A DNA stretch of 64,000 nt from Nitrospirota bacterium (lineage in GTDB: Bacteria; Nitrospirota; Nitrospiria; Nitrospirales; Nitrospiraceae), in assembly GCA_963775905.1 (NCBI GenBank), contig CAVZKI010000007.1:80491-144490 (forward strand), given 5' to 3'. Positions 6,615 through 55,350 of this stretch are shown piece after piece. The translations under genes were made by a program, and so were the position numbers. Each line of letters starts with the position of its first letter. The first letter of the stretch is position 1. Under the pieces are notes generated by a model that was not told where the DNA came from, searched no databases, and saw nothing but the letters and a program-made list of their open reading frames with translations.

Positions 6615-6797
6615 GGAGTCTGTCCGAGTAATGCCATTCTACTGCAGCAAACGATCTGCAAGCATCTGCGTCGTTCTCGGCCCGAAAAAATCCTCAACGT
6701 ATTCCAGCGAATACGCCTCCGGCTTTTTCGAGCCTGCGGCCTCGCATCTACCAGCAGCTCCTTTGCTTCGCAACGAAGGATTACTCGGACAGACTCC
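6615..6797. repeat. Nested-hairpin repeat, family B copy 1 (183 bp)
   Basis: 18-nt terminal inverted arms GGAGTCTGTCCGAGTAAT / ATTACTCGGACAGACTCC. Inner GTATTC-cagc-GAATAC hairpin. Homologous to 36763-36945. Confidence 0.85.
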
Positions 6798-6801
6798 TGC
6801 C

Positions 6802-7167
6802 CTATTGCACGTCGACAGTGATGGTATCGGCGGCCGTGACAAGATCGTGGTCCTTCGTGGCACCTTTCACGGTGATCTTGTGCTTCCCCTTGCTCAGGCC
6901 CTTAATCTCCCCTTTAAAACCCTTCTGATACTGATCGTCCACATACGCATGGACATGCGCAGCTTGGGAGCCCTTGGTCAACTCGTACTTCAGCTCAAAG
7001 CTGTCGCTGACCTTGTCCCCGTCCTTGGGAGACGTAATCATAACCTTCGACCCATCCTCTATTGGTGGTTTATCTGGGTTATCCCCTGCGAAGACTGGTG
7101 CTCCACTGAGACAGCCCACTAACGCGATCCCTAATCCCATGAACCCGATACGTCCTATCACATGCAT
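6802..7167 (-). CDS. Secreted small protein of unknown function (possibly DUF4399-like)
   Basis: ATG 7167 preceded by AAGGAGG. Signal peptide MHVIGRIGFMGLGIALVGC. The DUF4399 resemblance is from memory only. Confidence 0.6.
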   Translation of the reverse strand: MHVIGRIGFMGLGIALVGCLSGAPVFAGDNPDKPPIEDGSKVMITSPKDGDKVSDSFELKYELTKGSQAAHVHAYVDDQYQKGFKGEIKGLSKGKHKITVKGATKDHDLVTAADTITVDVQ

Positions 7168-7254
7168 CGCAACCTCCTTGTTTGAACCAGCTGAATAGAC
7201 ACTGCAGCTTACCATCCCCTGCCGGATATCTTCTTGTCTGAAAACCAATCGTTC

Positions 7255-7600
7255 CCCGATAGAGAATATTTGAACATTCTACTTTTCAGGATTGTCCCAG
7301 TCAATCCACACATACGCGCATCGAGGGAGCACATTCTAATCGTGCGACCTCGGCGAGCAAGAAGAGCACCTGGCCGCTCTTTCCACGACCGAGCTTGCCC
7401 GTTCACTCTCCCGGGAACGGCACCCGTGTTGGTCCCACTGCGGCCGTCGAGCGAGGCCCTTCCACTTCCAAAACCTCTCTTAAGGAGAGTGGCCAAGGCT
7501 GTCCTTTACTGCGCGCATCGAGCGACCACTGTTTCATCGTGGGGGCTCTGCGAGCAAGAAGGGCACCTGGCCGCTCCCCTCCCCCCTGTTACTCCGTCAT
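7255..7600. repeat. Composite intergenic repeat, family D copy (two core modules)
   Basis: Core ...GCGCATCGAG.GA.CA....T..ATCGTG.G.CTC.GCGAGCAAGAAG.GCACCTGGCCGCTC occurs twice here. It recurs at 11265-11700, 15775-15890, 29030-29131 and 30286-30640. Confidence 0.8.
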
Positions 7601-7632
7601 ATGGTACGGTAGAGGGACGCAGGAGCCCGACG

Positions 7633-8577
7633 ATGACCATCCAGGCACAATTTCCAGACGAGCAGAGCGTCGAAGGCGCCTTCACCAGGCAACCGGATGC
7701 CTTTCGGGGCTGGGTGACCGCAAATGGTAATTCCGGTTACCCGGCGGCGAGCGGCCGCTACCATCTCTATGTCTCCTGGGCCTGCCCCTGGGCGCATCGG
7801 ACGATCATTGTGCGGAAACTCAAGAAGCTCGAAAACGTGATCGGCATGACAGTCGTGGACCCGATCCGCGACGAGCGGGGCTGGGCGTTCCGCGAAGGGC
7901 CGGGCCATTCGCTCGATCCCATCAATGGATTCCAGTTCCTCAGCCAGGCCTACAAGGCCACCGATCCGAACTATCGGGGACGGTTCACCGTCCCTGTGTT
8001 GTGGGATACGGTGACGGAACGCATAGTCACCAATTCCGACGACGACCTCATGCGCATGTTCAACGGCGAGTTCAATCGCTTCACCGAGAGCATGATCGAC
8101 CTGTATCAAGAAGGAATCAGGAATGAGATCGACGACCTCAATACCTTCATCTACGAGAACGTGAACGACGGGGTCTATCGCGCGGGATTCGCCACATCGC
8201 AGCAGGCCTATGAACGAGCCGTGCGGCGCCTCTTCGACGCCTTCGATCAACTCGAGGACCGGCTGGCGCGCCAACGCTACCTCTTCGGCTCACAATTCGT
8301 CGAAACCGATTGGCGCTTGTTCGTCACCCTCGTGCGCTTCGACGCCGTCTACCACGGCCATTTCAAGTGCAACCTCAGGCGAATCATCGACTACCCAAAC
8401 CTCTTCTGCTACCTCAAAGACCTCTATCAGACCGACGGCATCGCCGACACCGTGAACTTCGACCACATCAAGCGGCACTACTACATCACCCACGACGACA
8501 TCAATCCGACCCGTATCGTCCCCCTTGGGCCCGACCAAGATCTCACCACCCCCCATGGCCGCGAACATCTGCGATAA
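7633..8577 (+). CDS. yqjG: Glutathionyl-hydroquinone reductase (Xi-class GST, YqjG/ECM4 family)
   Basis: GRYHLYVSWACPWAHRTIIVRKL with the CPWA motif. Start taken at ATG 7633 (MTIQAQ) because the upstream in-frame part of the ORF is repeat-derived. Confidence 0.85.
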   Translation: MTIQAQFPDEQSVEGAFTRQPDAFRGWVTANGNSGYPAASGRYHLYVSWACPWAHRTIIVRKLKKLENVIGMTVVDPIRDERGWAFREGPGHSLDPINGFQFLSQAYKATDPNYRGRFTVPVLWDTVTERIVTNSDDDLMRMFNGEFNRFTESMIDLYQEGIRNEIDDLNTFIYENVNDGVYRAGFATSQQAYERAVRRLFDAFDQLEDRLARQRYLFGSQFVETDWRLFVTLVRFDAVYHGHFKCNLRRIIDYPNLFCYLKDLYQTDGIADTVNFDHIKRHYYITHDDINPTRIVPLGPDQDLTTPHGREHLR

Positions 8578-8580
8578 CGA

Positions 8581-8712
8581 GCAGACCGGTTCCTCTGGTT
8601 TATCTGGTTTGTTTAGTTCGTCTAGTTGGTCTTGTTTAACCAAACAAACGAGACAAACCAAATAACAGTCTTCTTCTGCTGGCGGCCTTTTCAGCATCCT
8701 GGTAGAGTACAA
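8581..8712 (-). repeat. Composite repeat: family A 5' stub plus GT-rich/AC-rich palindrome (family C)
   Basis: The reverse complement reads CCAGGATGCTGAAAAGGCCGCCAGCAGAAGAAGACTGTTATTTGGTTTGTCTCG...AACCAGA.... Same architecture as 45073-45190 and 53173-53262. Confidence 0.8.
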
Positions 8713-8737
8713 TTTTTTTCAGAAAGTCTGTCCCCCC

Positions 8738-9601
8738 ATGTCCATCCAGTGGTTTCCCGGTCACATGAATGCGGCGCGCAAAGAAGCGGCCAAGACGATG
8801 GAGGTGATCGATGTCATCGTCGAAGTGCTGGATGCGCGCATACCAGAAGCCAGCTGCAATCCGCTGATCGAAGAGCTGCGCCTGGTCCGCCAACGTCCTA
8901 GCCTGAAAGTGCTCAACAAGGCTGATCTCGCCGATCCCGCCATCACTCAGGCCTGGCTTCACCTGTATAACCAGCAACCGGGCGTCAGCGCCGTGGCTCT
9001 ATCTTGTAGTCATGCGGGCGATGCTGCCAAGGTGCCCCAGCTCTGTCAGCCGCTCGCCCCCCATCGCAATAGCAGCGCAAAGCCGCTGCGCATGCTGATC
9101 ATGGGGGTCCCCAACGTCGGCAAATCGACCCTGATAAATACGCTCCTCAAACGCCGCATCGCTCGCGTGGGCGACGAGCCAGCCGTGACCAAAGTTCAAC
9201 AGCGTCACAAACTGAACGACCACATGGCCATCACCGACTCACCCGGACTGTTATGGGGGACCATCAAAGACCCTTATGTGGGCCTTCTGCTCGCCACGAT
9301 CAACGCCGTGGGCCACAGGGTTGTCGATGACGAAGCTGTCGCCGAATTTCTCGCCACCATCCTGCTTGCGCGCTATCCTGCCCGACTCACGGCCCGCTAC
9401 GGTTTTGCGGTGGACGGGCTTACGAGCGCGGGCGTGATCGACGCCATCGCCAGAAAGCGCGGCTGCCTGCTGACCAGAAGCGGCGGCGGGTTAGACCGAG
9501 ACAAAGCGGCGAGGGTCCTCTTGTCGGACTACCGCAACGGCACACTCGGCCGCACCAGTTTGGAGACACCGGATAGGCGGCCAGAAGAAAAGCGCTCATA
9601 G
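8738..9601 (+). CDS. rbgA: Ribosome biogenesis GTPase A (YlqF/RbgA)
   Basis: MSIQWFPGHM start, circularly permuted GTPase motifs LNKADL ... GVPNVGKSTLIN. Confidence 0.9.
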   Translation: MSIQWFPGHMNAARKEAAKTMEVIDVIVEVLDARIPEASCNPLIEELRLVRQRPSLKVLNKADLADPAITQAWLHLYNQQPGVSAVALSCSHAGDAAKVPQLCQPLAPHRNSSAKPLRMLIMGVPNVGKSTLINTLLKRRIARVGDEPAVTKVQQRHKLNDHMAITDSPGLLWGTIKDPYVGLLLATINAVGHRVVDDEAVAEFLATILLARYPARLTARYGFAVDGLTSAGVIDAIARKRGCLLTRSGGGLDRDKAARVLLSDYRNGTLGRTSLETPDRRPEEKRS

Positions 9602-9614
9602 CAAAAGTGTGAAG

Positions 9615-9720
9615 CGGGAAGACCGGCTGGTTGCTCTGGTTTGTTTGGTTTGTCTCGTGTATTTGGTTCAACCAGACTAACCAGAGAAACCAGATCAACC
9701 AGAGAAACCAGAGAACGGCG
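9615..9720. repeat. Family C palindromic repeat (GGTTTG arm / AACCAGA arm)
   Basis: GAAGACCGGCTGGTT prefix, then CTGGTTTGTTTGGTTTGTCTCG opposed to AACCAGACTAACCAGAGAAACCAGATCAACCAGAG. Confidence 0.8.
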
Positions 9721-9726
9721 ACTCCC

Positions 9727-11191: not shown

Positions 11192-11264
11192 ATCCCCTTC
11201 AATCTGGAATGAGACCTGTGTCCATCTTCCCGGGCTCTCGGAACAGCCGTTCCCCCATAATAGA

Positions 11265-11700
11265 TCGTCCAAGCTCGCTCGTTTCCCTTTCCCATTGTGA
11301 CCTGGATTGTTCCCCCAATGCATGCAACTTTCTCACCCGCCCACCCTCTGGCACGCCGAGACGTGCCATTAACCCAGGCGAGGGTCTTCCGATTTGTTAC
11401 ACCTCTCTTAAAGGGAGTGGCCGAGGCTGCCTTTTACTGCGCGCATCGAGCGACCCTCATCCTTCCAAATGATCCTTCAAACTCGCTTGCTTCTCTCTCG
11501 TGGAATGGCACCCGTGTTGGTCCCACTGCGGCCGTCGAGCGAGCACATTCTGATCGTGCGCGCTCCGGGAGCAAGGGATCAGCACGGGTGTCATTCCGCC
11601 TCTTGCATCGTAGGGGCTCTGCGAGCAAAAAGGGCACCTGGCCGCTCCCCGCCCCTTCCAAGCTTGCTCGTTTCTCTTTCAGAGAGTTCATCCCCGCGCT
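11265..11700. repeat. Composite intergenic repeat, family D (longest copy)
   Basis: Contains CCAAGCT.GCTCGTTTC, CTCTCTTAAAGGGAGTGGCCGAGGCTGCC, TACTGCGCGCATCGAGCGACC, GGCACCCGTGTTGGTCCCACTGCGGCCGTCGAGCGAG and GGGCTCTGCGAGCAAAAAGGGCACCTGGCCGCTCC modules. Confidence 0.8.
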
Positions 11701-11940
11701 CTTGGGAAACACGGGAATATGTGGGGGCAAGACCTGAACTAGTTTGGTTGATCTCGTTTGGTTCGTGGGAGTTCCAGCCCCCAGCGTGGTGAATCGTACG
11801 AGGTGCATAGTTCTGATTGCGTTCCGGGTTTGCACCAGCTATATGATAGGGACCTTGGCGATCTCAAGCTAGAGTCCCCTCCGTGAGGAGAACCGATGAG
11901 TAATTCTGATGTCCACTTCAACTTATCCGTAACAACCTAG

Positions 11941-13176: not shown

Positions 13177-13219
13177 ATATCCTCCTTGGTTATCCGATTC
13201 TCCGACCAGATGGCCGCCA

Positions 13220-13526: not shown

Positions 13527-13756
13527 TCAGCAGGATGCTCAAAAAGTCCGCCAGCCTCTCAAGCACGCGACGGGTACGCCTAGCGCGACAGTTGCGATCC
13601 ACGTTCGGAGTTCGAAGTTCAGGAAATCTCGAACTTCGGACCTCGAACCCTCATCCGTCTTGCCCGTCCCGCCAGTCTCGCTCAGCTATTCTGCGGGAGT
13701 GTTATTCTGTTGTGTCACCCACGAACCCTCCCGAGTTTGCGGACGGCAGCTTGCGG
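13527..13756 (+). repeat. Family A nested-hairpin repeat (divergent copy)
   Basis: Starts CAGCAGGATGCTCAAAAAGTCCGCCAGC and carries the ...CTGCGGGAGTGTTATTCTGTTGT... 3' module. Confidence 0.7.
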
Positions 13757-13800: not shown

Positions 13801-14166
13801 GTGCTTCAGCCATCGGAAGGACCTCGCCTGATGACACCAGCAGCGCTGATTGAACAGGAACTCGCGGCAGCCGAGGCTGCGCGGCAGAACAGCAACGAGG
13901 GGAAGGCGCGAGTCTGTGCTCGACGCGCCGTGGCCCTCGCCACTGAGGCGTGGCTGACTCGGCTTCCTCTTCCACGATGGCGCGGGGATGCGATGGAACA
14001 TCTCCGGCAGATTCAGCAGAACGCGTCCTTCCCGCTTCTCATCCGCCAGGCGGCCGAGCGATTGAGCACCTCGGTGACCCGTCAGCACACAGCCCCCATC
14101 ACGACAGACCCCGTCGCCGACGCGAGACTCATCATCGCCCACCTCACCACCGACGGTGGCGCGTGA
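13801..14166 (+). CDS. Hypothetical helical protein
   Basis: Ala/Arg-rich helical ORF; start may be ATG 13831. Followed directly by a family C repeat, as other + strand genes are. Confidence 0.4.
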   Translation: MLQPSEGPRLMTPAALIEQELAAAEAARQNSNEGKARVCARRAVALATEAWLTRLPLPRWRGDAMEHLRQIQQNASFPLLIRQAAERLSTSVTRQHTAPITTDPVADARLIIAHLTTDGGA

Positions 14167-14262
14167 AACGCGAGGACCGGCTGGTCTCTCTTGTTTATTT
14201 GGTCTGTTTTGTTTGTTTGGTTGCACGAGACTAACCAGATGAACCAGATCAACCTGCCCCGC
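14165..14262. repeat. Family C palindromic repeat
   Basis: GAGGACCGGCTGGTC prefix, GTTTATTTGGTCTGTTTTGTTTGTTTGGTT arm opposed to AACCAGATGAACCAGATCAACC. Confidence 0.75.
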
Positions 14263-15774: not shown

Positions 15775-15890
15775 ACTACCTTAAGGGTTGGATGACTTGC
15801 CCTCTACTGCGCGCATCGAACGAGCACATTCTTCATCGTGCGCGCTCTGCGAGCAAGAAGGGCACCTGGCCGCTCCCTCCTCTTACCAGC
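15775..15890. repeat. Family D core module
   Basis: CTACTGCGCGCATCGAACGAGCACATTCTTCATCGTGCGCGCTCTGCGAGCAAGAAGGGCACCTGGCCGCTCC; includes a GCGCGCA...TGCGCGC stem. Confidence 0.8.
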
Positions 15891-17346: not shown

Positions 17347-17383
17347 CCGCAGGTTCCTACAGTGTGAACGGGTCAACCGTCTC

Positions 17384-17595
17384 TTAGCAGGATGCTGAAA
17401 CAGTCCGCCAGCGGCGTTCTCGCATCGTTCAGACCCTCAACGTACCCCAGAGGGTACGCCTCGGCCCTTCACTCGCTGCGGCCTTGCTGGGCGGCCTGTT
17501 TGAGCATCCTGCGGGAGTGTTCTCCTGTTGTACCAGACGTGCCGGCCATCGAAGTTCCGCTGTGCCGAAATGGTTTTTCCGGCAGTCTGCTAGCA
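17384..17595 (+). repeat. Family A nested-hairpin repeat (basic about 212-bp form)
   Basis: TTAGCAGGATGCTGAAACAG ... GTACCC-caga-GGGTAC ... CTGTTTGAGCATCCTGC ... CTGCTAGCA. Confidence 0.85.
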
Positions 17596-17652: not shown

Positions 17653-20600
17653 TCATACGCGCGATGACGGGACTGTTCGCGCCGTTCCGTCACGTTGATC
17701 AATCACCGTCTGTGACGCTTTGTGAAGGGCCCGGGACGTCGCTCGCTCTTCGATCCACTGGTAGAGCACCGGCAGTACAACAAGCGTCAGAAACGTCGAA
17801 CTGACGAGTCCGCCGATCACAACGACGGCCAGAGGCCGTTGAACTTCCGATCCAATCCCATGGGCAAAGGCGAGCGGAACCAATCCCAGTAGCGCGACCA
17901 GCGCCGTCATCAAGACGGGCCGGAGACGCATCATGCAGCCAATCAGCACCGCCTGCTGAACGTCCTTCCCCTCCTGCTGGCGAAGCGCATTCATATAGGA
18001 CACCAACACGATGCCGTTCAACACGGCCACGCCGAAGAGATTGATGAATCCGACTGAGGCCGGCACGCTCAGGTATTCCCCCGTCACCCATAAGGCGACA
18101 ATTCCGCCGATGAGGGCAAACGGAAGATTGAGAATGATCAGTGCAGCCTGCTTGAGCGAGGAGAACGACGAGAACAGGAGCAAGAAGATCGCGCCAATGG
18201 TGATCGGAACAATGATCTTGATGCGGGCCATCGCCCGCTGCATATTCTCGAACGATCCGCCCCAGACGATCGTGTACCCGTCCGGGAGCCGGACCTCCCG
18301 GGCGATCCGCTGCTGCGCCTCAGCCACAATACTTCCGATGTCCCGTCCGTGGGTATTGAAGCTGACTGGCAGATACCGCTGAAGGTGATCGCGGTTGATA
18401 CGCCCCGGTCCCTCGTGCATCCGGATGGTGCCGAGATCGCTGAGTGGAATGAATGCCCCACTGCCGGCCGTCAGTCGAATGTTTCCGATGGTCTCGATGC
18501 TGTTCCGATCCTGTTCCGGAAACCGCACTGTCAAATTGAACCGTCGATTCTCTTCGTACACCCGGGTCGCGGCTTCTCCTCCGATCGCGATTGCGATGAC
18601 CTCGCGCACGTCCGAGACGTTGATGCCGTGTCGGGCGATCTTGCTCCGATCGATATCGATCGTGATGTATGGCTGGCCGAAGAGTTGCTCTACTTTTAAA
18701 TCTTTGACGCCCCGAATCGTGCCGAGGACGCTGGCGATCTCATCCGCCGTGTGACGCAACGCCTCCAGGTCTGGCCCGAAGAGCTTGACGGTCGCCTCCG
18801 TGCGCACCCCCGAAATCAATTCGTCCACCCGTTGCTGGATCGGCTGGCTGATCAGAAAATTGGCGCCCGGCACCTGTGCCAGCCGCTCGCGGACTCGCTC
18901 TTTCAACTCCGCCATGGTGGAGGCCGTCGTCCACGTCTGAATCGGATGCAAAGCCGCGACGGAATCGCTTTCGTTCGGCTCTTGCGGGTCGGTCGCCAAT
19001 TCCGAGCGTCCGATCTTGGACACCATCATCTGCACTTCTGGAAACTCCAGCACCGCCCGCTGCACCTCTCGTTCGATCTTGATCGATTGCTCCAAAGAAA
19101 TGCTCGGCAAGCGGATCGTGAGGGGGGCCATCGTGCCTTCATTCAGAATGGGGACAAACTCCGACCCCAAAAATGGAACGAGCGCAATACTTCCTGCCAG
19201 CATGAGCCCTGTGGCTGTCAGTACCGCGCTCCGATGTCCTAACGCCCAGCGCAGCAAGGGAAGATAGGCGCGCTTGGCCCATCGGAGCGCCAAGGGATCG
19301 GGGTCGTTGTGCCCTGCCCGCAGAGTCAGATTACACAAGACAGGCGACAGCGTGACCGACAGAATGAGCGACACCATCAGGGCAATCATGATGGTATAGG
19401 CCATCGGCTTGAACATTTTGCCTTCCATGCCTTGGAAAGAGAGGATGGGCATAAAGACGATGATGATGATCAGAATGCCGAAGACCACGGGGCGGGCGAC
19501 CTCCCGAGCGGCATTGAGGATGAGGGCCTGTCGAGGCAGGCCCTGGTGACGGGGATCGGACAGATGCCGGTGGATGTTTTCCACCACCACCACAGACGCG
19601 TCGACCATCATGCCGATGGCGATGGCCAGGCCGCCCAAGGACATCAGATTGGCAGTGAGATCGAACCGATCCATCACGAAGAACGTCACGAGCGGCGTCG
19701 CGATGAGCGTCGCCGCCACGATCAAGGCGCTCCTGGTATCGCCCAGGAACACGAACAGCACGATCACCACCAGGAGAATACCCTCGCCCAGCGCCTTATA
19801 GACGGTTGCCAATGCGGCGGAGATCAATTCGATACGATCATAAAAGGGAACGATCCGCCATCCTGCCGGCAGCAGCCCCTTGTCCTGTATCTCGGCGATC
19901 TTGCCTTTGAGGCCTTCCACGACGTCGCGGGCGTTTCCGCCGCGCAGCATGAGCACGATCCCTGCCACCACCTCGCGCTCACCGTTCAGGACGGCAGCTC
20001 CATGGCGAATGGCATGGCCGATCTGTACTTGGGCGACGTCATGGATGTGCACGGGAGTGCCGCCCGCTTCCTTGACGACGATGTCCTCGATGTCGCTCAG
20101 TTTCCGGATCATCCCCACGCCGCGGACGATGTACTTTTCGGCATGTTTCTCCAGCACGTTGCCTGCGGCATTCGCGTTGTTGTTCGCCACGGAGGCAAAC
20201 ACCTCGTCCAGCGAGAGAGCGTATTTGCGCAACAGTTCCGGCTCGACGAGCACCTGGTACTGTTTGACATACCCGCCTTGCGAGTTGACGTCGATCACTC
20301 CAGGGACGCCCTTGAGCAACGGCCGGATGACCCAGTCCTGCACTGTTCGCTGTTCGATCAATTCGCGTTCCACCGCGGCGGCGTCCAGACCGGCATGCGG
20401 AGGGCCTTCCAGATAGTACTGATACACCTCTCCCAGTCCGGTGCTGTTCGGCGTCATCATCGGTTCAGACCCGGGCGGTAAGTGCTCCCGCACTTCGATC
20501 AACCGTTCGAGCACGAGTTGGCGGGCAAGGTTGATGTCCATCTGATCGTCGAACACCACCGTAATCAACGACAATCCTACTTTGGTGAGCGAGCGTAGAT

Positions 20601-26114: not shown

Positions 26115-26440
26115 CTAATCCGAATTTCTCAAATACACCGACCAATAGACCAACGCGACGAGGACGGACCCGCCGAGGACGTTGCCGATCGTCACCAGCG
26201 CGAGATTGCTGACCGCATCAGTGACTGAGAGTGGTGCCGAGGTCCCCGCAGCGAGCGCCACGCCGATCGGAAGAAGGTACATGTTGGCGACGGAATATTC
26301 AAACCCGCAGACGCCGAACGCGGTGATTGGAAAGACGGTGGCGAGAATCTTATCGGTCACGCTCTGCGCGCCCATGCATAACCAGACTGCCAGACAGATC
26401 AGCACGTTGCAGAGAATGCCTGCACATCCGAGATCCCTAA
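26115..26440 (-). pseudogene. 3' fragment of a formate/nitrite transporter (FNT) gene
   Basis: Only the last 100 or so residues are present: GILCNVLICLAVW ... GFEYSVANMY ... VYWSVYLRNSD. The 5' side is replaced by a duplicated VOC-gene 5' region. Confidence 0.7.
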
Positions 26441-26528
26441 TGCGATAGGAAATCTCTTCATGGCTCCCCCTCTCAAGATCGCGCGTGGAGAGGGCGGTCA
26501 GAAAAGTAGCATGTCCCCAGGTTTTTTG
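26423..26528. repeat. About 105-bp direct repeat, copy 1 (5' region of a VOC-type gene)
   Basis: Roughly 85% identical by eye to 27406-27509 (…TGCGATAGGAAATCTCTTCATGGCTC…GGCGGTCAGAAAAGTAGCATGTCCC…). Confidence 0.8.
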
Positions 26529-27214: not shown

Positions 27215-27470
27215 TCACTGCTGGATAGCATCGCCACGCCCGACAACATCGCCCAACCCATGCCCCCGGTGAGCCCCACCCTCTTCGTGGGCCACTTTCC
27301 GAATCGACAGGTTGACCGCATCCATGCGCCCAACGCATCCTTTCCAGGAATGAGCAGGTCCGGCCGGCAGCCGAGACGTTGCGAGTAGTCGTCAGCGGAC
27401 GCCTCCACATCCGAGACGCCCAAGTGCGATATGAAATCTCTTCAAGGCTCTCCTCTCAAGGCCGCGCGCG
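27133..27470 (-). pseudogene. VOC (glyoxalase/bleomycin-resistance fold) family gene, frameshifted
   Basis: (L)KRFHIALG then, after a 1-nt shift, VSDVEASADDYSQRLGCRP. The remainder is spread over two frames (…NLSIRKVAHEEGG…). Confidence 0.45.
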
Positions 27471-27509
27471 AACGAGGCGGTCAGAAAAGTAGCATGTCCC
27501 TGTTTTTGG
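27406..27509. repeat. About 105-bp direct repeat, copy 2
   Basis: See 26423-26528. Confidence 0.8.
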
Positions 27510-28886: not shown

Positions 28887-29029
28887 GCACGGTATGCAAA
28901 CCCAAATGAGTAACTTAATGAAATTTTACATGGCTTTCCCCCAAGGCCGCGCGTGGACAGACTCCGCAATGTTGAATTGCAAGACCTTGTACTGGGCTCT
29001 GCATTCGGTCGAGCTCGCCCGCTTCGTCC

Positions 29030-29131
29030 ACCGGGCGGCCTGGTCTATCCTCGAATGCGCGCGTCGAACGAGCACCTTCCCAGCGTACGCGTTCCGCGAG
29101 CAGGAGGACGACCAGGCTACCCCGTCTCCCC
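29030..29131. repeat. Family D core module (diverged)
   Basis: GAATGCGCGCGTCGAACGAGCACCTTCCCAGCGTACGCGTTCCGCGAGCAGGAGGACGACCAGGCTACCCC. Confidence 0.6.
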
Positions 29132-29767: not shown

Positions 29768-29943
29768 GGGGCCCTCCTCTGTGTGAAATGGAAAATACAA
29801 ACCGGCTACGTTCTGCCGAGCGTGGCACTACATCGCAACTCCCTTCTCTATTCATAACAGTCCGTGCTGTTCGCGCCCGATGCACCAGTCGACCAAGCGG
29901 TTATCCTATATACAGTAATCCCTCCAAGCTTGCTCGTTTCTCC

Positions 29944-30285
29944 TTAACAGGATGCTGAAAAAGCCCGCCAGCAGCGTTCTCACATCGTTCAGACCCTCAA
30001 CGTACCAAATGAGATTCTCGGAGATCGGAAGCGCTGGAGGGGCTTTTCCGTTCGCCAAGATCCATTCTAGGGGCGAACGGCCCACACGAAGTGCGGTTTG
30101 TACCTCCTCGGCCCTTCACTCGCTGCGGCCTTGCTCGGGACAAGGCGCGTCTCGGCGCGCCGGGGTTGGGCGGGTGAGAAGTCTGGCCCTTTTGAGCATC
30201 CTGCGAGGGTGTTCTGCTCTTGTCCCAGACGTGCAGGCTATCGAAGTTCTGCTGTGCCGAAATGGTTTTCCCGCAGCCTGTTAAG
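29944..30285 (+). repeat. Family A nested-hairpin repeat, long form (342 bp)
   Basis: TTAACAGGATGCTGAAAAAG ... CTTTTGAGCATCCTGC ... CCTGTTAA. Carries two extra internal modules (87 nt and 45 nt) relative to 17384-17595. The first 280 nt or so are roughly 95% identical by eye to the inverted copy at 55011-55350. Confidence 0.9.
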
Positions 30286-30640
30286 AGGGAGTCGCCGGAC
30301 TGTCCTTCACTGCGCACATCGACCGACCGTCATCCTTCTCAATGATCCTTCCAAGCTTGCTTGGTTTTCCTAGCTTGGAAGGGCACGCATGTTGGTCTAC
30401 CTGCGGCCGTCGAACGAGGCCCTTCTCAGGGCGCGCGTTACGGGAGCACAGGACCAACGTGGGTGTCCTTCCAATCCTTTTTATCGTGGGGGCTCTGCGA
30501 GCACAGAGACCATGCCAGCCGCTCGCTCGTATTCTTACTTTAAAATGGGTGTGCCATACGATTTCCGCAATCTGGCTCCTTTCGCCCATCGAGGGAGGGT
30601 TGACCGAGCATCCCTATCGGCGTAGCATATTCTCCTGACG
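30286..30640. repeat. Composite family D repeat
   Basis: TCACTGCGCACATCGACCGACC, CCTTCCAAGCTTGCTTGG, GGCACGCATGTTGGTCTACCTGCGGCCGTCGAACGAG and GGGCTCTGCGAGCACAGAGACCATGCCAGCCGCTC modules. Confidence 0.75.
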
Positions 30641-36326: not shown

Positions 36327-36512
36327 GAACTAACTCAACGTCCAATGAATCCGGTCGCCCACGTAGTGCGTGATCGCAATCACGCTGACGCCAATGACTC
36401 AATGCTACGCGATGACTTTCCAGGCCGGGATCTGCTGGGCCCGCGCCAAGTGAGGGCTCGGCACTGCGAGCAGCGTGAGGCCCCACACAATGCTCACAGT
36501 CATGGCCTCTTC

Positions 36513-36763
36513 TAGCAGGATGCTGAAAAAGTGGCTCTTCTCACCTGCCCGACCCCGGCGCGTCGAGACGCGCCCTTTCCCATGCGGCGTTCTCGCTTTG
36601 CTCAGAAGCTCAACGTACCGAAGCGTACGCCTTCGCCTCTTCGCTCGCTGCGGCCTTGCTGGACAAACTATTTGAGCATCCTGCGCGGTGTTTTCCTGTT
36701 GTCCTAGATGTGCAGACCATTGAATTTCCACCGTGCCACAATAGTTTTTCCGCAGCCTGCGAG
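36513..36763 (+). repeat. Family A nested-hairpin repeat
   Basis: TAGCAGGATGCTGAAAAAG ... CGTAC-cgaagc-GTACG ... TATTTGAGCATCCTGC ... CCTGCGAG. The GGCGCG..CGCGCC module is inserted in the 5' arm. Confidence 0.85.
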
Positions 36764-36945
36764 GAGCCTGTCCGACATTGACCGTTCTACTGCGGCGAAC
36801 GATCTGCGACCATCTGCATCGTGCTCGGCCCGAAACAATCCTCAATGTATTCGAGCGAATACACCTCCAGTTTTCCGGGCCTGCGGCCTCGCATCTGGCC
36901 GCACCTCCTGCGCCTCGTCACTAGCGGCAATGTCGGACAGGCTCC
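36763..36945. repeat. Family B nested-hairpin repeat, copy 2 (183 bp)
   Basis: Arms GGAGCCTGTCCGACATTG / CAATGTCGGACAGGCTCC. Inner GTATTC-gagc-GAATAC. Confidence 0.85.
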
Positions 36946-37764: not shown

Positions 37765-37776
37765 TACTTCCTCCCT

Positions 37777-37980
37777 AACAGGCTGCGGAATAACTAAGTA
37801 GACATGTTAGAACGTAGATGGTCCGCACGTGTGACTCAACGGAAGCATACTTCCGCAGGATGCTCAACAAGGCCGTTCAGCAAGGCCGCAGCAAGCGAAA
37901 AGGCGCGGCGTATGCTTCGGGACGTTGAGTCTCTGAGCGATGCGAGAACGCCGCTGGCGGACTTTTTCAGCATCCTGCGA
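37777..37980 (-). repeat. Family A nested-hairpin repeat (inverted orientation)
   Basis: + strand reads TAACAGGCTGCGG ... CCGCAGGATGCTCAACAAGG ... GGCGGACTTTTTCAGCATCCTGCG. Confidence 0.85.
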
Positions 37981-38036
37981 AACAAGACGACGAATGATGG
38001 GGCCGCATTGTAAAGAAACCCCTTACCCCTTTGCAA

Positions 38037-49738: not shown

Positions 49739-49824
49739 TGGTGCCGAAGGCGGGACTTGAACCCGCACGGCTTGCGCCACACGCCCCTCAAACGTGCGTG
49801 TCTGCCATTTCACCACTTCGGCAC
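49739..49824 (-). tRNA. tRNA-Leu (anticodon GAG), class II with long variable arm, CCA encoded
   Basis: Reverse complement GTGCCGAAGTGGTGAAATGGCAGACACGCACGTTTGAGGGGCGTGTGGCGCAAGCCGTGCGGGTTCAAGTCCCGCCTTCGGCACCA. Acceptor GTGCCGA/TCGGCAC, anticodon loop TTGAGGG. Confidence 0.9.
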
Positions 49825-49825
49825 T

Positions 49826-49950
49826 TGGCAGGAGCTTGAAAAACCCCCGCAGCTGCGTTCTCGCGTCGCTCAAACCCTCAACGTACTCAGCAGTACGCCT
49901 TGGGCTTTCGCTTGCTGCGGCCTTGTTGCAGGGATTTTTGAAGCTCCTGC
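49826..49950 (+). repeat. Family A nested-hairpin repeat (short variant) abutting the tRNA-Leu 5' end
   Basis: GGCAGGAGCTTGAAAAAC ... GTACT-cagc-AGTAC ... GATTTTTGAAGCTCCTGC. Both arm sequences changed in a compensating way. Confidence 0.8.
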
Positions 49951-49994
49951 AACTCGAGATACTGGAGCAAACTGTCACGTTGTTTCGTGCCTGC

Positions 49995-50015: not shown

Positions 50016-50062
50016 GAACGACGTTCCTGAGGGAGCCGCATTATAGAAGTGGCCCAAAATCC

Positions 50063-50091
50063 TTGTCAATCAATGGAGGCTCCGGTAGAAT
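50063..50091 (+). promoter_or_regulatory. Sigma70-type promoter candidate, 10 nt upstream of the HAD-hydrolase ATG
   Basis: TTGTCA, 17-nt spacer, TAGAAT, then CGGGCGGCTC ATG. Confidence 0.5.
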
Positions 50092-50101
50092 CGGGCGGCT
50101 C

Positions 50102-50836: not shown

Positions 50837-50889
50837 CGCCGTGAACCGTTCAACGTTAACCGATTCTGCGGTCATACAGTTTTCGCAAC

Positions 50890-50930
50890 GTTTGCGGCTC
50901 GCGTTTTACGATTAACGTTTCACGGTTCAC
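50890..50930 (-). repeat. Degenerate tandem heptamer array
   Basis: Reverse complement GTGAACC GTGAAAC GTTAATC GTAAAAC GCGAGCC GCAAAC. Confidence 0.45.
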
Positions 50931-50940
50931 GCCTTGAGTC

Positions 50941-51576: not shown

Positions 51577-51663
51577 GAGATGTCATTGGTCAGGGGTCAT
51601 TGGTGGGGAAGCCTCTGTACCCATTGACCAGTGACGATTGACCAACGACAAGGAGTTTGGGAA

Positions 51664-53175
51664 ATGAAGATCATGCAGGTTACGGTACAGGTTGGGCGAG
51701 TGGAGACCATAGCGGCAGAGGTGTTGGTACTCACGCACTGTGAAGGAGAGCCATTGGCCAAACAGGATGCGGCCCTGCTCGATCGGGCCCTCGGGGGTTC
51801 GTTGAGCAAGCTGGTGCAATCCAAGGAATTCGAAGGCAAGGCCAACGAAGTATTGCTGTATCACACGCAAGGTACGGTACCGGCGAAGCGGCTGGTGCTG
51901 GTCGGTTTGGGCAAGAAGAACGAGGTGACGCTTGAGACGATCCGGCAAGCGATGGGCTCAGCGGCGAAGCGCGTCCGTCAGGCGAAGGTCGAGTCCTTTT
52001 CGGTGGCGCTGCCAACCGTGACACCTGCCGGGATGTCATGGGTCGAGATGGCGCAAGCGATGGTTGAAGGGGCGATCCTGGGCAGTTATCAGTTCACGGT
52101 TTATCGGAGCGAGGCTGCCTCAGGGCACGAAGTCGCGGGGATGAACATTCTCATTCCGAGGAAGGGTCAGCTGCGGCAGGTCACTGAAGGGGTCCGGCGC
52201 GGCGTCGCCACGGCAGAGGCCACCGTCTTTGTCCGCGACCTCTGTAATCATCCCTCCAACGTCCTGACGCCCACCAGGGTCGCCAACGAAGCGAAGACCA
52301 TCGCCAAGGCTGAAGGGATCACGATCAAGATTCTCGAGCAGAAGGAGATGGAGCGTTTGGGGATGGGCGCGCTGCTCGGCGTGGCACGCGGGAGCCAGGA
52401 GCCGCCCAAGTTCATCATCCTTGAATACAATGGGGCCAAGAACAAAGATGTGCGTCCGGTCGTGCTGGTCGGGAAAACGATCACCTTCGATACGGGAGGG
52501 ATCTCGCTGAAGCCTGCCGAAAATATGGAGCACATGAAGGCCGATATGACGGGGGGAGCCGAAGTCCTGGCTTCGATCAGAGCGGCGGCCAGACTCAAGC
52601 TCCCGCTGCGTCTTATCAGTATACTGCCCGTGGCGGAAAACATGCCGGGTGGCCGGGCGATGAAGCCGGGCGATATCGTGACGACGCTGTCGGGGAAGAC
52701 CGTCGAAGTGCAGAACACGGATGCGGAAGGCCGGCTCATCCTGGCCGACGGCCTCGCCTATGCGATGCGCTATAAGCCGGCGGCCTTGATCGACATTGCG
52801 ACGCTCACGGGGGCTTGCGTCGTGGCGCTCGGCCAATTTGCGATCGGGATGTTCGGGAGCGATCAGCCACTCAAAGAACAGGTCCGGAAGTCGGGACAGA
52901 AGGCCGGCGAGCGTGTGTGGGAGATGCCCTTGTGGGAGGAATATTTCGAACAGCTCAAGAGCGATGTCGCCGATATGCGCAACATCGGTGGCCGTGGCGG
53001 CGGCATGATTACCGCGGCGCTCTTTCTGAGCAAGTTCGTGGGGGACTGCCCGTGGGTGCATCTCGATATTGCCAGTACGGATTGGAGCGAGCGTGAACGG
53101 GCCTACATTCCGAAGGGTCCCACCGCGATTGGGACCAGGTTACTGGTGCAATACCTGATCGATCGGAGTCTCTAG
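51664..53175 (+). CDS. pepA: Leucyl aminopeptidase (M17)
   Basis: NTDAEGRLILADGL and VGKTITFDTGGISLKP. ATG 51664 preceded by AAGGAG. Confidence 0.92.
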   Translation: MKIMQVTVQVGRVETIAAEVLVLTHCEGEPLAKQDAALLDRALGGSLSKLVQSKEFEGKANEVLLYHTQGTVPAKRLVLVGLGKKNEVTLETIRQAMGSAAKRVRQAKVESFSVALPTVTPAGMSWVEMAQAMVEGAILGSYQFTVYRSEAASGHEVAGMNILIPRKGQLRQVTEGVRRGVATAEATVFVRDLCNHPSNVLTPTRVANEAKTIAKAEGITIKILEQKEMERLGMGALLGVARGSQEPPKFIILEYNGAKNKDVRPVVLVGKTITFDTGGISLKPAENMEHMKADMTGGAEVLASIRAAARLKLPLRLISILPVAENMPGGRAMKPGDIVTTLSGKTVEVQNTDAEGRLILADGLAYAMRYKPAALIDIATLTGACVVALGQFAIGMFGSDQPLKEQVRKSGQKAGERVWEMPLWEEYFEQLKSDVADMRNIGGRGGGMITAALFLSKFVGDCPWVHLDIASTDWSERERAYIPKGPTAIGTRLLVQYLIDRSL

Positions 53176-53262
53176 CAGGATGCTGAAAAAGTCCGCCAGC
53201 ACAAGAAGACCGTTGTTTGGTTTGTCTGGTTTATTGGTTAAACGAAACTAACGCAGATGAAC
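53173..53262 (+). repeat. Composite repeat: family A 5' stub plus family C palindrome
   Basis: TAGCAGGATGCTGAAAAAGTCCGCCAGCACAAGAAGACCGTTGTTTGGTTTGTCTGGTTTATTGGTTAAACGAAACTAACGCAGATGAAC. Its first 3 nt are the pepA stop codon. Confidence 0.85.
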
Positions 53263-53317
53263 TGTCCCTGCGTCTCGCCTGTCTCGCCAGTCTCTCGGCT
53301 TTTTGGAACGACATCGC

Positions 53318-54421
53318 ATGACCTCGCGCGAAAAGATCGGGCAGCTCTTCATGGTCGGGTTTCTGGGCACGTCGGTGACGCCCGATCTGGCCTCGTTCAT
53401 CAAAGAGTACAAGCCGGGCGGTGTTATTCTCTTCTCGCGAAATCTAGAATCCGTCGAGCAGATGGTCGACCTGACCAACGGCCTGCAAGCCTGCAGCCCC
53501 CATTCGCCGCTGTTGATCTCGATCGATCAAGAAGGTGGTCGGGTCTCCCGTCTTCCGAAGGGCTTTACGATTTTCCCCCCCTGCGACCTGTTGGGCCGCT
53601 GCAACTCAACCGAATTGGCCTACGCGGCTGCGGCCACCATTGCCAGAGAGCTGAGGGCGGTGGGCGTGAACATGAATATGGCGCCGGTGCTCGACGTGAA
53701 CAGCAATCCGGACAATCCGGTCATCGGCGACCGCGCGTTCGGTACGACGCCGGATGTGGTCTGTGAACTGGGGTTGGCGACGGCGGCGGGGCTGCAAGAC
53801 AACAAGGTCGTGGCCTGCGGGAAACACTTTCCCGGTCACGGCGATACGAATGCCGACTCCCACAAAGAACTTCCGGTGGTCGAGGCATCGCGTGAGCGAT
53901 TGGAGGCCATCGAGTTGCCCCCGTTCCGCCGTGCTGTTAAACAGGGTGTCGCATCGATGATGACCGCGCACGTGCTCTACCGGGCCCTCGATCACGAATT
54001 GCCGGCCACGCTCTCGCCGACCATCATCAACAATTTCTTGCGCCAGGAGCTGCGATACGACGGAGTGGTGTTGACGGATGACTTAGAAATGCACGCGATC
54101 ATCGACCATTATGGCATGGAAGACGCTGCGGTTCGTGCGGTGCTGGCGGGATGCGATGTCTTGTTGATTTGTAAAGATCGGGATAGGGAAGTCGCCGCCT
54201 TCGGAGCCGTGGAGCAGGCGGTGGCGGCAGGCACGATTTCCGTCGAGCGGTTAGACATTTCGGCGGCTCGAATCGCCCGCCTGAAAGACCGGTTTGTGTC
54301 GCCCTATAAGCCGGTGACGGTCTCCGATGCGAAGCTCATTGCGGGATGCCGAACTCATCAGTCGTTGTTGCACACGATCGAACAGGTTCAGGCGCGGTTA
54401 TCTAATCCGAAGTATTCTTGA
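53318..54421 (+). CDS. nagZ: Beta-N-acetylhexosaminidase (GH3)
   Basis: REKIGQLFMVGF, ISIDQEGGRVSRL and KHFPGHGDT. The start could also be 53303. Confidence 0.9.
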   Translation: MTSREKIGQLFMVGFLGTSVTPDLASFIKEYKPGGVILFSRNLESVEQMVDLTNGLQACSPHSPLLISIDQEGGRVSRLPKGFTIFPPCDLLGRCNSTELAYAAAATIARELRAVGVNMNMAPVLDVNSNPDNPVIGDRAFGTTPDVVCELGLATAAGLQDNKVVACGKHFPGHGDTNADSHKELPVVEASRERLEAIELPPFRRAVKQGVASMMTAHVLYRALDHELPATLSPTIINNFLRQELRYDGVVLTDDLEMHAIIDHYGMEDAAVRAVLAGCDVLLICKDRDREVAAFGAVEQAVAAGTISVERLDISAARIARLKDRFVSPYKPVTVSDAKLIAGCRTHQSLLHTIEQVQARLSNPKYS

Positions 54422-54473
54422 GCGCTTCCTTCCCCCTTGCAGGTTGTCGGCCGATTCCCCTACAGTGCGCTGC

Positions 54474-55013
54474 ATGATCCGCACATTTCAAGGTATCAAA
54501 CCCACCATTCCCACGTCCTGTTTTATCGAAGAGACCGGCGTCGTCATTGGCGATGTCGTGCTAGGCGAGCACTGCAGCGTCTGGTTCCATGCTGTCATTC
54601 GCGGGGACGTGCACTATATCAGGATCGGTGACCGGACTAACGTGCAGGATCTCTGTATGCTCCATGTCACCCACGATACCCATCCGCTGATCATCGGCAA
54701 CGAGGTGACCATCGGCCACGGGGTGATACTCCACGGCTGCACGATTAAGGATCGTGTGCTGATCGGCATGGGCGCCATCATGATGGATGGAGCCGTGATC
54801 GGGGAGGACTCGGTCGTGGGAGCCGGGGCCCTGATCACGGAGCAGACAATCGTCCCACCCAACAGCGTGATCCTTGGCTCACCCGCGAAGGTGAAACGAT
54901 CGGTCACGGCTGAAGAACTCGCGTGGATTAAGGAATCGGCGGAGAACTACGTGAGGTACGCAGACCAGTACCTGGCCGGCCCATCAAAAACCAAACCCGG
55001 CTTCCAAATCTAA
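54474..55013 (+). CDS. Gamma-carbonic-anhydrase-like hexapeptide-repeat protein (YrdA/PaaY family)
   Basis: ATG 54474. Left-handed beta-helix repeats, VIRGDV..IRIG..TNVQD...H. Confidence 0.88.
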   Translation: MIRTFQGIKPTIPTSCFIEETGVVIGDVVLGEHCSVWFHAVIRGDVHYIRIGDRTNVQDLCMLHVTHDTHPLIIGNEVTIGHGVILHGCTIKDRVLIGMGAIMMDGAVIGEDSVVGAGALITEQTIVPPNSVILGSPAKVKRSVTAEELAWIKESAENYVRYADQYLAGPSKTKPGFQI

Positions 55014-55350
55014 CAGGCTGCAGAAAAACTATGTTAGCACACCATAGCATCGATGCTCCGCACGTGTGAGATCACAGGAAAACACTCCCGCAGGATGCTC
55101 AAAAAGGCCAGACTTCTCACCCGCCCAACCCCGGCGCGCCGAGACGCGCCTTGTCCCGAGCAAGGCCGCAGCGAGTGAAGGCCCGAGGAGGTACAAACCG
55201 CACTTCGTGTGGGCCGTTCGCCTCTAGAATGGATCTTGGCGAACGGAAAAGCCCCTCCAGCGCTTCCGATCTCCGAGAATCTCTTTGGTACGTTAAGGGT
55301 CTGAACGATGCGAGAACGATGCTGGCGGACTTTTTTCAGCATCCTGCTAA
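55011..55350 (-). repeat. Family A nested-hairpin repeat, long form (340 bp), inverted twin of 29944-30285
   Basis: Occupies the entire gap between convergent genes. Its ends contain the TAA stop of 54474..55013 and the TGA stop of 55336..56053. Confidence 0.9.

Follow-up and report, generated by a model that had tools for sequence, protein, structure and literature searches.

MITEs are short, non-coding DNA transposons for which the transposase is supplied from another locus. The Correia elements (NEMIS) of Neisseria are palindromic MITEs of 100-155 bp with inverted ends of ~26 bp, and the ERIC (IRU) sequences of enterobacteria are imperfect palindromes of ~127 bp for which no mobilising enzyme has been identified. 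The ends of insertion sequences of the IS5 group start with GA or GG. Target duplications of the sequence YTAR are produced by IS5 (PMC5009759), and exact 4-bp duplications are also produced by IS701 (PMC2266710).

We analysed nested-hairpin repeats in a window of 64,000 nt from contig CAVZKI010000007.1 of a Nitrospirota bacterium (coordinates are window positions), where they lie in intergenic DNA within a housekeeping chromosome. We consider it likely, with a probability of about 0.75, that these repeats are MITEs that have spread across Nitrospira by inserting at YTAR sites. The units are 121-341 nt long and without coding capacity, have terminal inverted repeats in family A/composite units as well as in family B, and occur in many copies, the presence or absence of which varies among related genomes. 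As MITEs, they are an undescribed family of a well-known kind.

Family A is an imperfect palindrome of ~125 nt that consists of an arm beginning with CAGGATGCTGAAAAAG, a conserved core of ~80 nt and the inverted arm. The usual mobile unit is ~200-215 bp long, is bounded by CAGG...CCTG and combines the family A palindrome with a second module of ~80 nt (module 2), the end of which (...GTTTTTCCGCAGCCTG) repeats the arm motif a third time, in inverted form; the terminal inverted repeats are CAGGATGCTGAAAAAG versus CAGGCTGCGGAAAAAC or CAGGATGCTCAAAAAG. Family B (~181 bp) has inverted ends starting with GAGCCTGTCCGAC that are unrelated to those of family A, while the core is common to both. The core is the best-conserved part, with GAGAAC invariant and ACGTTGAG and GCAAGGCCGCAG nearly invariant. 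The 28-nt arm is common to different families whose interiors differ. In the window and 118 loci, we found 339 arm-like 16-mers, and the spacing of inverted arm pairs had peaks at 100-140 nt (113 pairs) and at 180-230 nt (39 pairs).

Like ERIC, family A is ~125 nt long and imperfectly palindromic from end to end, lies in transcribed intergenic DNA in either orientation, includes variants with extra internal insertions and is strongly conserved in sequence across species at differing sites. However, ERIC belongs to another phylum, and the likeness shown is one of features and not of sequence; moreover, the Nitrospira elements differ in their 4-bp YTAR duplication, their bipartite unit and the presence of one core in two families with unrelated ends. 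Similarly, the elements resemble Correia elements, as compared by description, in the TA-containing target, the frequent co-transcription with neighbours, the long RNA hairpins and the lack of an identified transposase; by contrast, TA alone is duplicated in Correia elements versus 4 bp here, and neither an IHF site nor end promoters were detected in the Nitrospira elements. With MITEs of the IS5 group, the elements share the 4-bp YTAR direct repeats documented for IS5, terminal inverted repeats, small size, lack of coding capacity, high copy number and insertion polymorphism between relatives, and family B ends begin with GAG. They differ in that family A ends start with CAGG, which counts against this assignment, that the window and ~0.9 Mb of related loci yielded no parent insertion sequence, and that the interior is a conserved covarying hairpin and not leftover insertion-sequence DNA.

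Integron attC sites were rejected because the ends (CAGG.../GAGCC...) lack, by eye, the R''/R' boxes (RYYYAAC...GTTRRRY), the copies are scattered among housekeeping genes and none of 40 ORFs in the window encodes an integrase domain. Elements derived from IS200/IS605 and associated with palindromes, which have sub-terminal hairpins but neither inverted ends nor a target duplication, were ruled out by the inverted ends and the duplication. At the gathering threshold, Rfam 15 recovered only two tRNAs in the window, and with E-values up to 10 the best match over an element reached 21 bits versus a threshold of 140 bits. There was no Rfam match and no matching publication in the searchable literature, in line with the first-pass annotation, in which the element was not recognised as one of a described family.

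Scanning the window with a covariance model built from 103 copies, we detected three intact family A copies, three family A copies interrupted by nested insertions, two family B copies and one fragment. Thus, the core is present in eight copies, of which six belong to family A palindromes and two to family B; the window also has several other repeat families. The core motif CCTCAACGTA occurred 11 times with at most one mismatch versus 2.3 times expected, and none of 100 shuffles reached 11. The first-pass annotation had assigned the core to at least nine family A and two family B copies; the two family B copies and six of family A hold, while those at 13527, 45073 and 53173 have only the 28-nt arm CTAGCAGGATGCTGAAAAAGTCCGCCAG.

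A complete bipartite element occupies 17384-17593 on the plus strand (TTAG, 17384-17387; A palindrome, 17388-17511; module 2, 17512-17589; CTAG, 17590-17593) between the minus-strand genes acrB (stop at 17653) and zwf (start at 17376); it matched the model at 17381-17518 as an intact family A copy with 156 bits. In the opposite orientation, the element at 37775-37981 on the minus strand (CTAA, 37775-37778; module 2, 37779-37855; A, 37856-37977; CGAA, 37978-37981) also contains an intact family A copy (match 37849-37984, 130 bits), and its CTGTTAG end adjoins a minus-strand gene at its ribosome-binding site and ATG (37764). The third intact copy, at 49829-49949 on the plus strand, is a solo family A variant with the arms GAGCTTGAAAAAC/GATTTTTGAAGCTC (match 49822-49956), which lies directly upstream of a tRNA-Leu gene (49739-49822) and follows a promoter with a perfect sigma-70 consensus (50069-50040), both of them on the minus strand. 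This variant is retained at the same site in the related genomes L021 and L056.

The three interrupted copies are also bipartite. The element at 29944-30284 on the plus strand (A, 29948-30203; module 2, 30204-30280) is flanked by TTAA at 29944-29947 and 30281-30284 and is interrupted by two nested insertions, of which one is apical (about 30009-30105) and the other is a hairpin module of 45 nt (30140-30184); its match to the model spans 29975-30130. The element at 36512-36763 on the plus strand (CTAG, 36512-36515; A, 36516-36683; module 2, 36684-36759; CGAG, 36760-36763) has the 45-nt module in its left arm (about 36533-36583) and a core match at 36576-36666 of 68 bits. The element at 55010-55350 on the minus strand contains nested insertions, among them the 45-nt module (55113-55157), and has a core match at 55164-55320 and CTAA on both flanks (55010-55013 and 55347-55350), the left of which contains the TAA stop codon of a hexapeptide-transferase gene.

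The first family B copy is a 181-nt palindrome at 6616-6796 on the plus strand with the ends GAGTCTGTCCGAGTAAT/ATTACTCGGACAGACTC and the core CCTCAACGTATTCCAGCGAATACGCCTC (match 6638-6775, 49 bits); the second, at 36764-36944 on the plus strand with the ends GAGCCTGTCCGACATTG/CAATGTCGGACAGGCTC (match 36786-36922, 32.5 bits), directly adjoins the element ending at 36763. The left arm of family A occurs alone on the plus strand at 13531-13558 (CAGGATGCTCAAAAAGTCCGCCAG), where it is followed by an unrelated repeat without the core, and at 45072-45099 and 53172-53203, where it is followed by a GGTTTGTCT-type repeat. At 45072-45075, CTAG contains the stop codon of a rhomboid gene (45073-45075), and at 53172 CTAG contains that of pepA (53173-53175). 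Finally, an isolated left-arm fragment lies at 8678-8704 on the minus strand (89% identity over 28 nt), and a weak core fragment from the apical hairpin region at 58005-58047 on the minus strand (20 bits, E = 0.011).

The 4-nt flanks were identical on the left and the right, as exact direct repeats, in 14 of 35 bipartite copies (shuffle mean 5.2, p<1e-4). Seven of these matches are non-palindromic direct repeats (CTAA five times, CTAC and TTAG), and none was a reverse-complement match. The left flanks were mostly CTAG (10), CTAA (9), TTAG (3) and TTAA (3), the right flanks CTAG (11), CTAA (5), TTAG (4) and TTAA (3), and in family B CTAG was present on both flanks in 4 of 7 copies. The outer helix TAACAGG/CCTGTTA proposed previously is better understood as the 4-bp YTAR target duplication together with the CAGG/CCTG ends of the ~200-215-bp unit. 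For family A palindromes without a recognisable module 2, the flank match was weak (3 of 68 versus 0.85 expected, p = 0.045), which counts against the MITE reading. In 40 of 103 copies, the TAG or TAA at the family A end was the stop codon of an upstream ORF with 80 codons or more, versus 8 and 10 in the two control frames, and three genes in the window terminate at an element-flanking stop codon.

The element was present in at least 83 assemblies, all from Nitrospira/Nitrospiraceae, with 105 distinct full copies and a mean identity of 74%. The close relative L046, the flanks of which are 96-97% identical to the window, lacks the 55010-55350 element at the corresponding site. The occupant also differs at the pepA stop codon, where the window has an arm-only chimera, L056 a full family A copy and L046 an inverted, full bipartite element; further sites are occupied in one species and empty in another. 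Comparisons of filled and empty sites between diverged species were not clean at the base level, which counts against the MITE reading. In 7 of 8 species pairs, same-site copies had diverged less than the third codon positions of the genes flanking them. Such conservation is unusual for passive MITE filler, as are an interior core as the best-conserved part and a core common to two families with unrelated ends.

The middle helices GAAAAAG/CTTTT.., GAAACAG/CTGTTT and GAGCTTGAAAAAC/GATTTTTGAAGCTC with their constant G-G mismatch, and the inner hairpins GTACCC/GGGTAC, GTACT/AGTAC, CGTAC/GTACG and GTATTC/GAATAC, are present as described in the first-pass annotation. Moreover, the compensated differences between copies are real: 30 of 47 helix pairs had changed on both sides versus 17.7 +/- 1.9 in shuffles, none of 500 shuffles reached 30, and sliding the pair partners as a second control gave 13-19 such pairs. 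In total, 90.8% of cells were paired, and 228 cells were doubly changed versus 78 in shuffles. Single copies folded with z-scores of -2.9 to -6.1 relative to shuffles, and one strand was the better folder in 98 of 105 copies. By contrast, same-site copies across species showed 0-3 compensatory versus 0-13 pair-breaking changes per species pair. Because same-site changes mostly break pairs, we assign the covariation to differences between sub-families, i.e. source lineages, and not to changes within resident copies; the resident copies mostly decay, and the source lineages each retain the hairpin. Selection on the fold of each copy, as originally argued, does not follow from the covariation in MITE-like mobile DNA with variable site occupancy.

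It is possible, although we regard it as unlikely, that the compensated differences result from mutation and not from selection, i.e. from template switching in replication or conversion between the palindrome arms. Template-switch mutation at quasi-palindromes is well established in bacteria, a DNA palindrome offers both arms in cis, and covariation between sub-families while resident copies decay fits arm-to-arm mutation. Moreover, at the same site in related species, copies can have apical domains of different sub-types or be inverted as a whole; thus, DNA-level rearrangement between arms or copies occurs. However, arm-to-arm correction, if unchecked, would erase imperfections such as the C-C (G-G) mismatch, two G-U pairs and asymmetric internal loops, all of which persist across about 100 copies. 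Also against this explanation, families A and B have the loops in common but differ in entire helices.

More doubtful is that the ~80-nt core is a functional structured RNA, e.g. a cis-acting stem-loop for transcript processing, stability or protein binding, which the MITE framework merely spreads or of which the host has adopted individual copies; this explanation is compatible with the DNA being MITEs. The blocks GAGAAC, ACGUUGAG and GCAAGGCCGCAG are conserved, and the intervening helices are wholly different in families A and B yet paired. On the better-folding strand, G-U pairs outnumber A-C mismatches 355 to 109, or 182 to 109 without two consensus G-U pairs, and the covariance model gives 120-156 bits on one strand versus 20-33 bits on the opposite strand. 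This strand asymmetry, however, is largely inherited from the family consensus and thus amounts to roughly one observation. Similarly, the same-site conservation favours a functional core, but conservation in place could be mimicked by gene conversion between the hundreds of copies or by recurrent insertion at hot spots, and at these sites pairs are mostly lost and not compensated. The copies abutting stop codons must be co-transcribed with the gene, and one variant is retained in three species inside the tRNA-Leu leader, after the perfect promoter and in the better-folding orientation. By contrast, the elements showed no preferred orientation relative to transcription (between co-directional genes, the sense strand was the weaker-folding one in 35 cases and the stronger in 24), no promoter or terminator of their own was found inside them, and Rfam offered no match. 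We therefore only tentatively entertain a genus-wide functional module of RNA or single-stranded DNA, with conserved loops and covarying helices, carried on two MITE families; if true, transposons would have spread this module, perhaps a signal for processing or stability or a hairpin that binds protein, through the genome, including many 3' untranslated regions and one tRNA leader.

It is very improbable that the elements are REP/BIME-like or IS200/IS605-type hairpins mobilised in single-stranded form by a Y1 (HUH) transposase, e.g. a RAYT, an enzyme for which the first-pass annotation proposed a search: the elements are intergenic, multi-copy and in both orientations, fold strongly on one strand in particular and adjoin a conserved tetranucleotide, but this tetranucleotide is directly duplicated on both sides whereas Y1 transposition is not known to leave a target duplication, the units are 125-215 nt long with inverted ends of 16-28 nt, unlike REP palindromes, which are 20-40 nt long with a 5' GTAG-type tetranucleotide, no Y1_Tnp domain or RAYT was found in the 40 ORFs of the window, and no multi-copy ORF lies beside the elements in 118 loci.

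If the elements are MITEs, they would be inserted by a DDE transposase with YTAR as its target and with cuts staggered by 4 bp, for which IS5 is the precedent. Since IS701-type enzymes also make exact 4-bp duplications, the IS5 group is only a candidate source of this transposase, and neither an autonomous element with matching ends nor a transposase gene was found in the window (40 ORFs) or in ~0.9 Mb of related loci. Surviving insertions would often lie exactly on stop codons because YTAR contains TAA or TAG and is scarce in this genome of 58% G+C, and because the duplication regenerates the stop codon, the gene would be unharmed. Existing elements and regenerated YTAR sites would draw further insertions, giving rise to the nested and abutting mosaics of the window. 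The arms are probably the ends bound by the transposase, which may be why the source lineages retain the hairpin, and the compactness of a hairpin may mean that co-transcription of the insert does no harm, or is of use by adding a stem-loop to a 3' end or leader.

In soils, waters and treatment plants, Nitrospira are the principal oxidisers of nitrite and the principal organisms that oxidise ammonia completely; their genomes are mostly metagenome assemblies. A dense, genus-wide MITE superfamily, with eight core copies in a 64-kb window, would account for much of their repeat-laden intergenic DNA; such repeats could hamper assembly, and the elements could serve as strain-level insertion markers. 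If the core acts as RNA, a regulatory or processing hairpin would have been spread by transposition in an environmentally important genus, providing a tractable parallel to ERIC. Finally, YTAR insertion that regenerates stop codons suggests a way for a transposon to fill a compact genome to saturation and yet leave its genes intact.

Using BLAST with the copy at 17383-17512 as query, together with direct reading of the sequence, we inventoried the copies of the repeat in the window. Family A, an imperfect palindrome of ~125 nt in which a conserved core of ~80 nt lies between an arm and its inverted counterpart, is represented by three intact palindromes of ~125-130 nt (the query copy on the plus strand, 37981-37855 on the minus strand and 49824-49950 on the plus strand) as well as by three copies that foreign insertions interrupt (29943..30204, 36513..36684 and 55350..55090). 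These six are what stands of the nine family A copies listed in the first-pass annotation; its entries at 13527, 45073 and 53173, and also a site at 8704, contain only the 28-nt arm CTAGCAGGATGCTGAAAAAGTCCGCCAG followed by other repeats. Both family B copies that it listed (~6616-6796 and ~36764-36944) were found to have their inner ~80 nt in common with family A, and all helix variants that it quoted were read in the copies as written. The covariance model of the copies that it had proposed as a check was built and recovered the same set in the window as BLAST and reading, plus a weak core fragment at 58005-58047. Moreover, CCTCAACGTA with at most one mismatch occurs 11 times in the window compared with 2.3 expected, a count reached in 0 of 100 shuffles, and single copies fold far better than shuffled sequence (z-scores of -2.9 to -6.1).

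The genes in the window are ordinary housekeeping genes, e.g. zwf, acrB, pfk, pepA, nagZ and purK. One ORF at 39842-41332 (-), which adjoins dus and maf, encodes a domain of the MbnB/TglH/ChrH type, i.e. a RiPP precursor-modifying enzyme, and may mark a peptide natural-product locus. The window also contains a second group of palindromic intergenic repeats with the common motif CTGCGCGCATCGAGCGAGC (repeat families D2, D3, D5, D6 and D8; 7290-7590, 11400-11660, 15800-15885, 29020-29125 and 30274-30535), an example being the hairpin GGAATGGCACCCGTGTTGGTCC...GGATCAGCACGGGTGTCATTCC at 11501-11597. Inverted arrays, in which blocks of the short repeat GGTTTGT(C/T)T are followed by their complements AACCAGA (D1 and D15), lie at 8577-8668, 9609-9709, 14163-14254, 45101-45190 and 53203-53260; two of them are fused to a family A left arm, and the arrays look like iterated, putative binding sites. 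Finally, two direct repeats of ~80 nt (D16 and D20; 26435-26517 and 27419-27500), 86% identical and 984 nt apart, are unrelated to the elements.

A scan of one representative genome per species with a degenerate 28-nt core pattern gave at least 118 stretches from at least 83 different assemblies; among the matches listed, all are from Nitrospira, Nitrospiraceae or Nitrospirota with the exception of one "uncultured bacterium" assembly with two stretches. By this distribution, the window is part of a Nitrospira chromosome. The core and arm patterns had no hits in the viral collection, and in the plasmid collection they gave only chance matches of 23-44 nt. In the window and the at least 118 loci, nhmmer detected 202 hits, 105 of them full length. 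Because all 105 differ, with a mean pairwise identity of 74% (range 49-96%), the copies are not recent identical duplicates, one of the possibilities raised by the first-pass annotation against its own reading. For another, a match to a described REP, BIME or MITE family, we found nothing: Rfam returned only two tRNAs for the whole window at the gathering threshold and chance-level hits in a permissive scan over one element, and the searchable literature (Nitrospira combined with REP or MITE terms, and raw sequence motifs) contained no description of the elements. We conclude that the repeat superfamily is real, widespread and apparently undescribed.

In a strict search for end motifs, 35 of 103 family A palindromes were followed by a second module of ~80 nt (module 2). 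Module 2 has two sequence variants and ends in ...GTTTTTCCGCAGCCTG, where the arm motif CAGG(A/C)TGCNNAAAAA occurs for the third time, inverted; the spacing of inverted arm-motif pairs in the window and the related loci has two peaks, one at 100-140 nt with 113 pairs and one at 180-230 nt with 39. The resulting bipartite unit has CAGG...CCTG boundaries with YTAR (CTAG, CTAA, TTAA or TTAG) on either side. The left and right flanking tetranucleotides are identical in 14 of the 35 bipartite units compared with 5.2 expected by shuffling (p<1e-4), and seven of these 14 are non-palindromic direct repeats (CTAA in five cases, CTAC and TTAG). No match was of the reverse-complement kind that an extension of the inverted repeat would give. 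In the window, examples of the duplication are TTAA at 29944-29947 and 30281-30284 and CTAA at 55010-55013 and 55347-55350. Family B copies have perfect inverted ends of 17-18 nt (GAGTCTGTCCGAGTAAT in copy 1 and GAGCCTGTCCGACATTG in copy 2, the differences being compensated), four of seven copies have CTAG on both sides, and one adjoins a bipartite element, the two sharing a degenerate CTAG (36760-36763).

A 4-bp YTAR duplication is the signature of IS5 insertion (PMC5009759), and IS701-family elements also generate exact 4-bp duplications (PMC2266710). Insertion of the IS630 type, i.e. a TA duplication within CTAG, was rejected because the first and fourth flanking bases also match, including in the non-palindromic pairs CTAA/CTAA and CTAC/CTAC; integron attC sites and group II intron domain V were ruled out by inspection. 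The best-supported reading is that the elements are MITEs with YTAR as insertion target, of which 4 bp are duplicated, and that IS5-dependent MITEs are their closest match; their shape and genomic behaviour resemble those of ERIC and Correia elements. An autonomous parent would have CAGGATGCTGAAAAAG...CTTTTTCCGCAGCCTG or GAGCCTGTCCGAC...GTCGGACAGGCTC ends with YTAR repeats outside. No transposase or Y1 domain was detected in the 40 ORFs of the window, the ends of family A, module 2 or family B formed no IS-sized inverted pairs in the window and the at least 118 loci, two candidate intervals for an autonomous insertion sequence contained no transposase-sized ORF, and clustering of 564 ORFs from these loci gave no multi-copy transposase-like protein.

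Elements are also nested in one another, with a 45-nt hairpin module and an apical insertion of ~95 nt inside family A copies. Three family A copies carry the module, TTCTCACCYGCCCRACCCCGGCGCGYCGAGACGCGCC, within their arms at mirror-image positions, and it is also free-standing with a compensated stem (GGCACGCCGAGACGTGCC); its copies are at 30140-30184 (-), 36537-36581 (+), 55113-55157 (+) and 11325-11375 (+), and at ~2330-2375 in the related locus L064. No YTAR duplication is visible around it, and there are two readings of it, as a small insertion element in its own right or as a marker of a sub-family. The ~95-nt insertion, lying between GTACC repeats, takes the place of the apical loop of the family A core in two window copies (~30009-30105 and 55190-55285) and in one related locus (L044, ~1945-2070).

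Comparisons between species bear on mobility. L046, a close relative's locus with flanks 96-97% identical to those of the window, lacks the element of 341 nt at 55010-55350. In other locus pairs, one species has an element at a site that is empty in its counterpart; at the base level these comparisons fit insertion, although the species are too diverged, and the junctions too blurred, for exact junctions to be read. At the pepA stop codon, the occupant in L046 is a full bipartite element, inverted and with CTAG/CTAG flanks, that in the window is an arm-only chimera, and that in L056 is a full family A copy in an orientation other than that of L046. More generally, the elements of related species at the same intergenic site can be oppositely oriented or differ in apical sub-type (L046 2524-2661 versus L056 2307-2444 and window 53172-53320; L086 1423-1559 versus L040 4580-4715), which points to one YTAR being used for insertion repeatedly, to inversion between the arms or to conversion among copies. 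In 40 of 103 copies (control frames, 8 and 10), an ORF of 80 codons or more is closed by the TAG or TAA of the A-end YTAR. In the window, this tetranucleotide holds the stop codons of a rhomboid gene (45073-45075), pepA (53173-53175) and a hexapeptide transferase gene (55011-13). YTAR would be a scarce target in a genome of 58% G+C, in which pyrimidine-preceded stop codons would provide it; insertions there would be tolerated because duplication of the tetranucleotide would restore the stop codon.

For covariation, 103 full copies were aligned with MAFFT without fitting to any structure. RNAalifold on a first, gappy MAFFT alignment gave a meaningless consensus; the consensus structure was instead obtained by transferring the folds of individual sequences to the alignment and voting among them. 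Standard pairs accounted for 90.8% of cells compared with 85.4% in shuffles and 32-39% when partners were slid by 1-3 columns; 30 of 47 pairs were changed on both sides (17.7 +/- 1.9 in shuffles and 13-19 with slid partners), and 228 cells were doubly changed (78 and 32-114, respectively). On none of the three measures did any of 500 shuffles reach the observed value, and the covariation tool describes two measures, those based on counts of pairs or pair types, as robust to relatedness. The differences between copies are therefore compensated, as the first-pass annotation stated; its further step, that this argues for selection on the fold, does not follow, as covariation by itself does not show that resident copies are selected for their fold as RNA or single-stranded DNA. 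Template switching between the palindrome arms can generate compensated changes without selection; against this being the whole story, specific mismatches and G-U pairs have persisted.

A genuine RNA role of the conserved core is, in our assessment, unlikely. The strand GCAGGATGCTCAAAAAGG...GGCGTAC..GTACGTTGAG...GCGAGAACG folds better in 98 of 105 copies (means of -64.7 versus -56.5 kcal/mol), has 355 G-U pairs versus 109 A-C mismatches (182 versus 109 without two consensus G-U pairs) and scores 120-156 bits with the covariance model versus 20-33 bits for the other strand, an asymmetry that is mostly a property of the family consensus and counts as roughly one observation. Relative to flanking genes, there is no bias to the better-folding strand (co-directional neighbours, 35 versus 24; the remaining contexts are 13 convergent and 6 divergent), and by inspection the elements contain no promoter or terminator consensus. 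As hints of a role, the best-conserved positions are internal (GAGAAC is invariant, ACGTTGAG and GCAAGGCCGCAG nearly so), and one core, with loops kept and helices replaced, occurs in two families with unrelated ends. Moreover, a sigma-70 promoter at 50040-50069 (-) with 12/12 consensus matches (TTGACA, 18 nt, TATAAT) lies upstream of both the element at 49829-49949 and tRNA-Leu(GAG) at 49739-49822 (-); this element is therefore part of the pre-tRNA leader and must be transcribed, in the better-folding orientation. This arrangement, with a locus-specific variant between the perfect promoter and tRNA-Leu, is retained in three species, L021 and L056 being the loci outside the window. In 7 of 8 species pairs, copies at one site resemble each other more closely than do the third codon positions of the adjacent genes (e.g. 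0.92 versus 0.74-0.77). Against selection on the fold of each resident copy, where paired positions differ between same-site copies of different species, the pairing is mostly lost, with 0-3 compensatory versus 0-13 pair-breaking changes per species pair. We rate the RNA role low because gene conversion among copies and reinsertion at hot spots can mimic in-place conservation, and replacement at a site does occur. The core common to both families is the one feature worth experimental follow-up.
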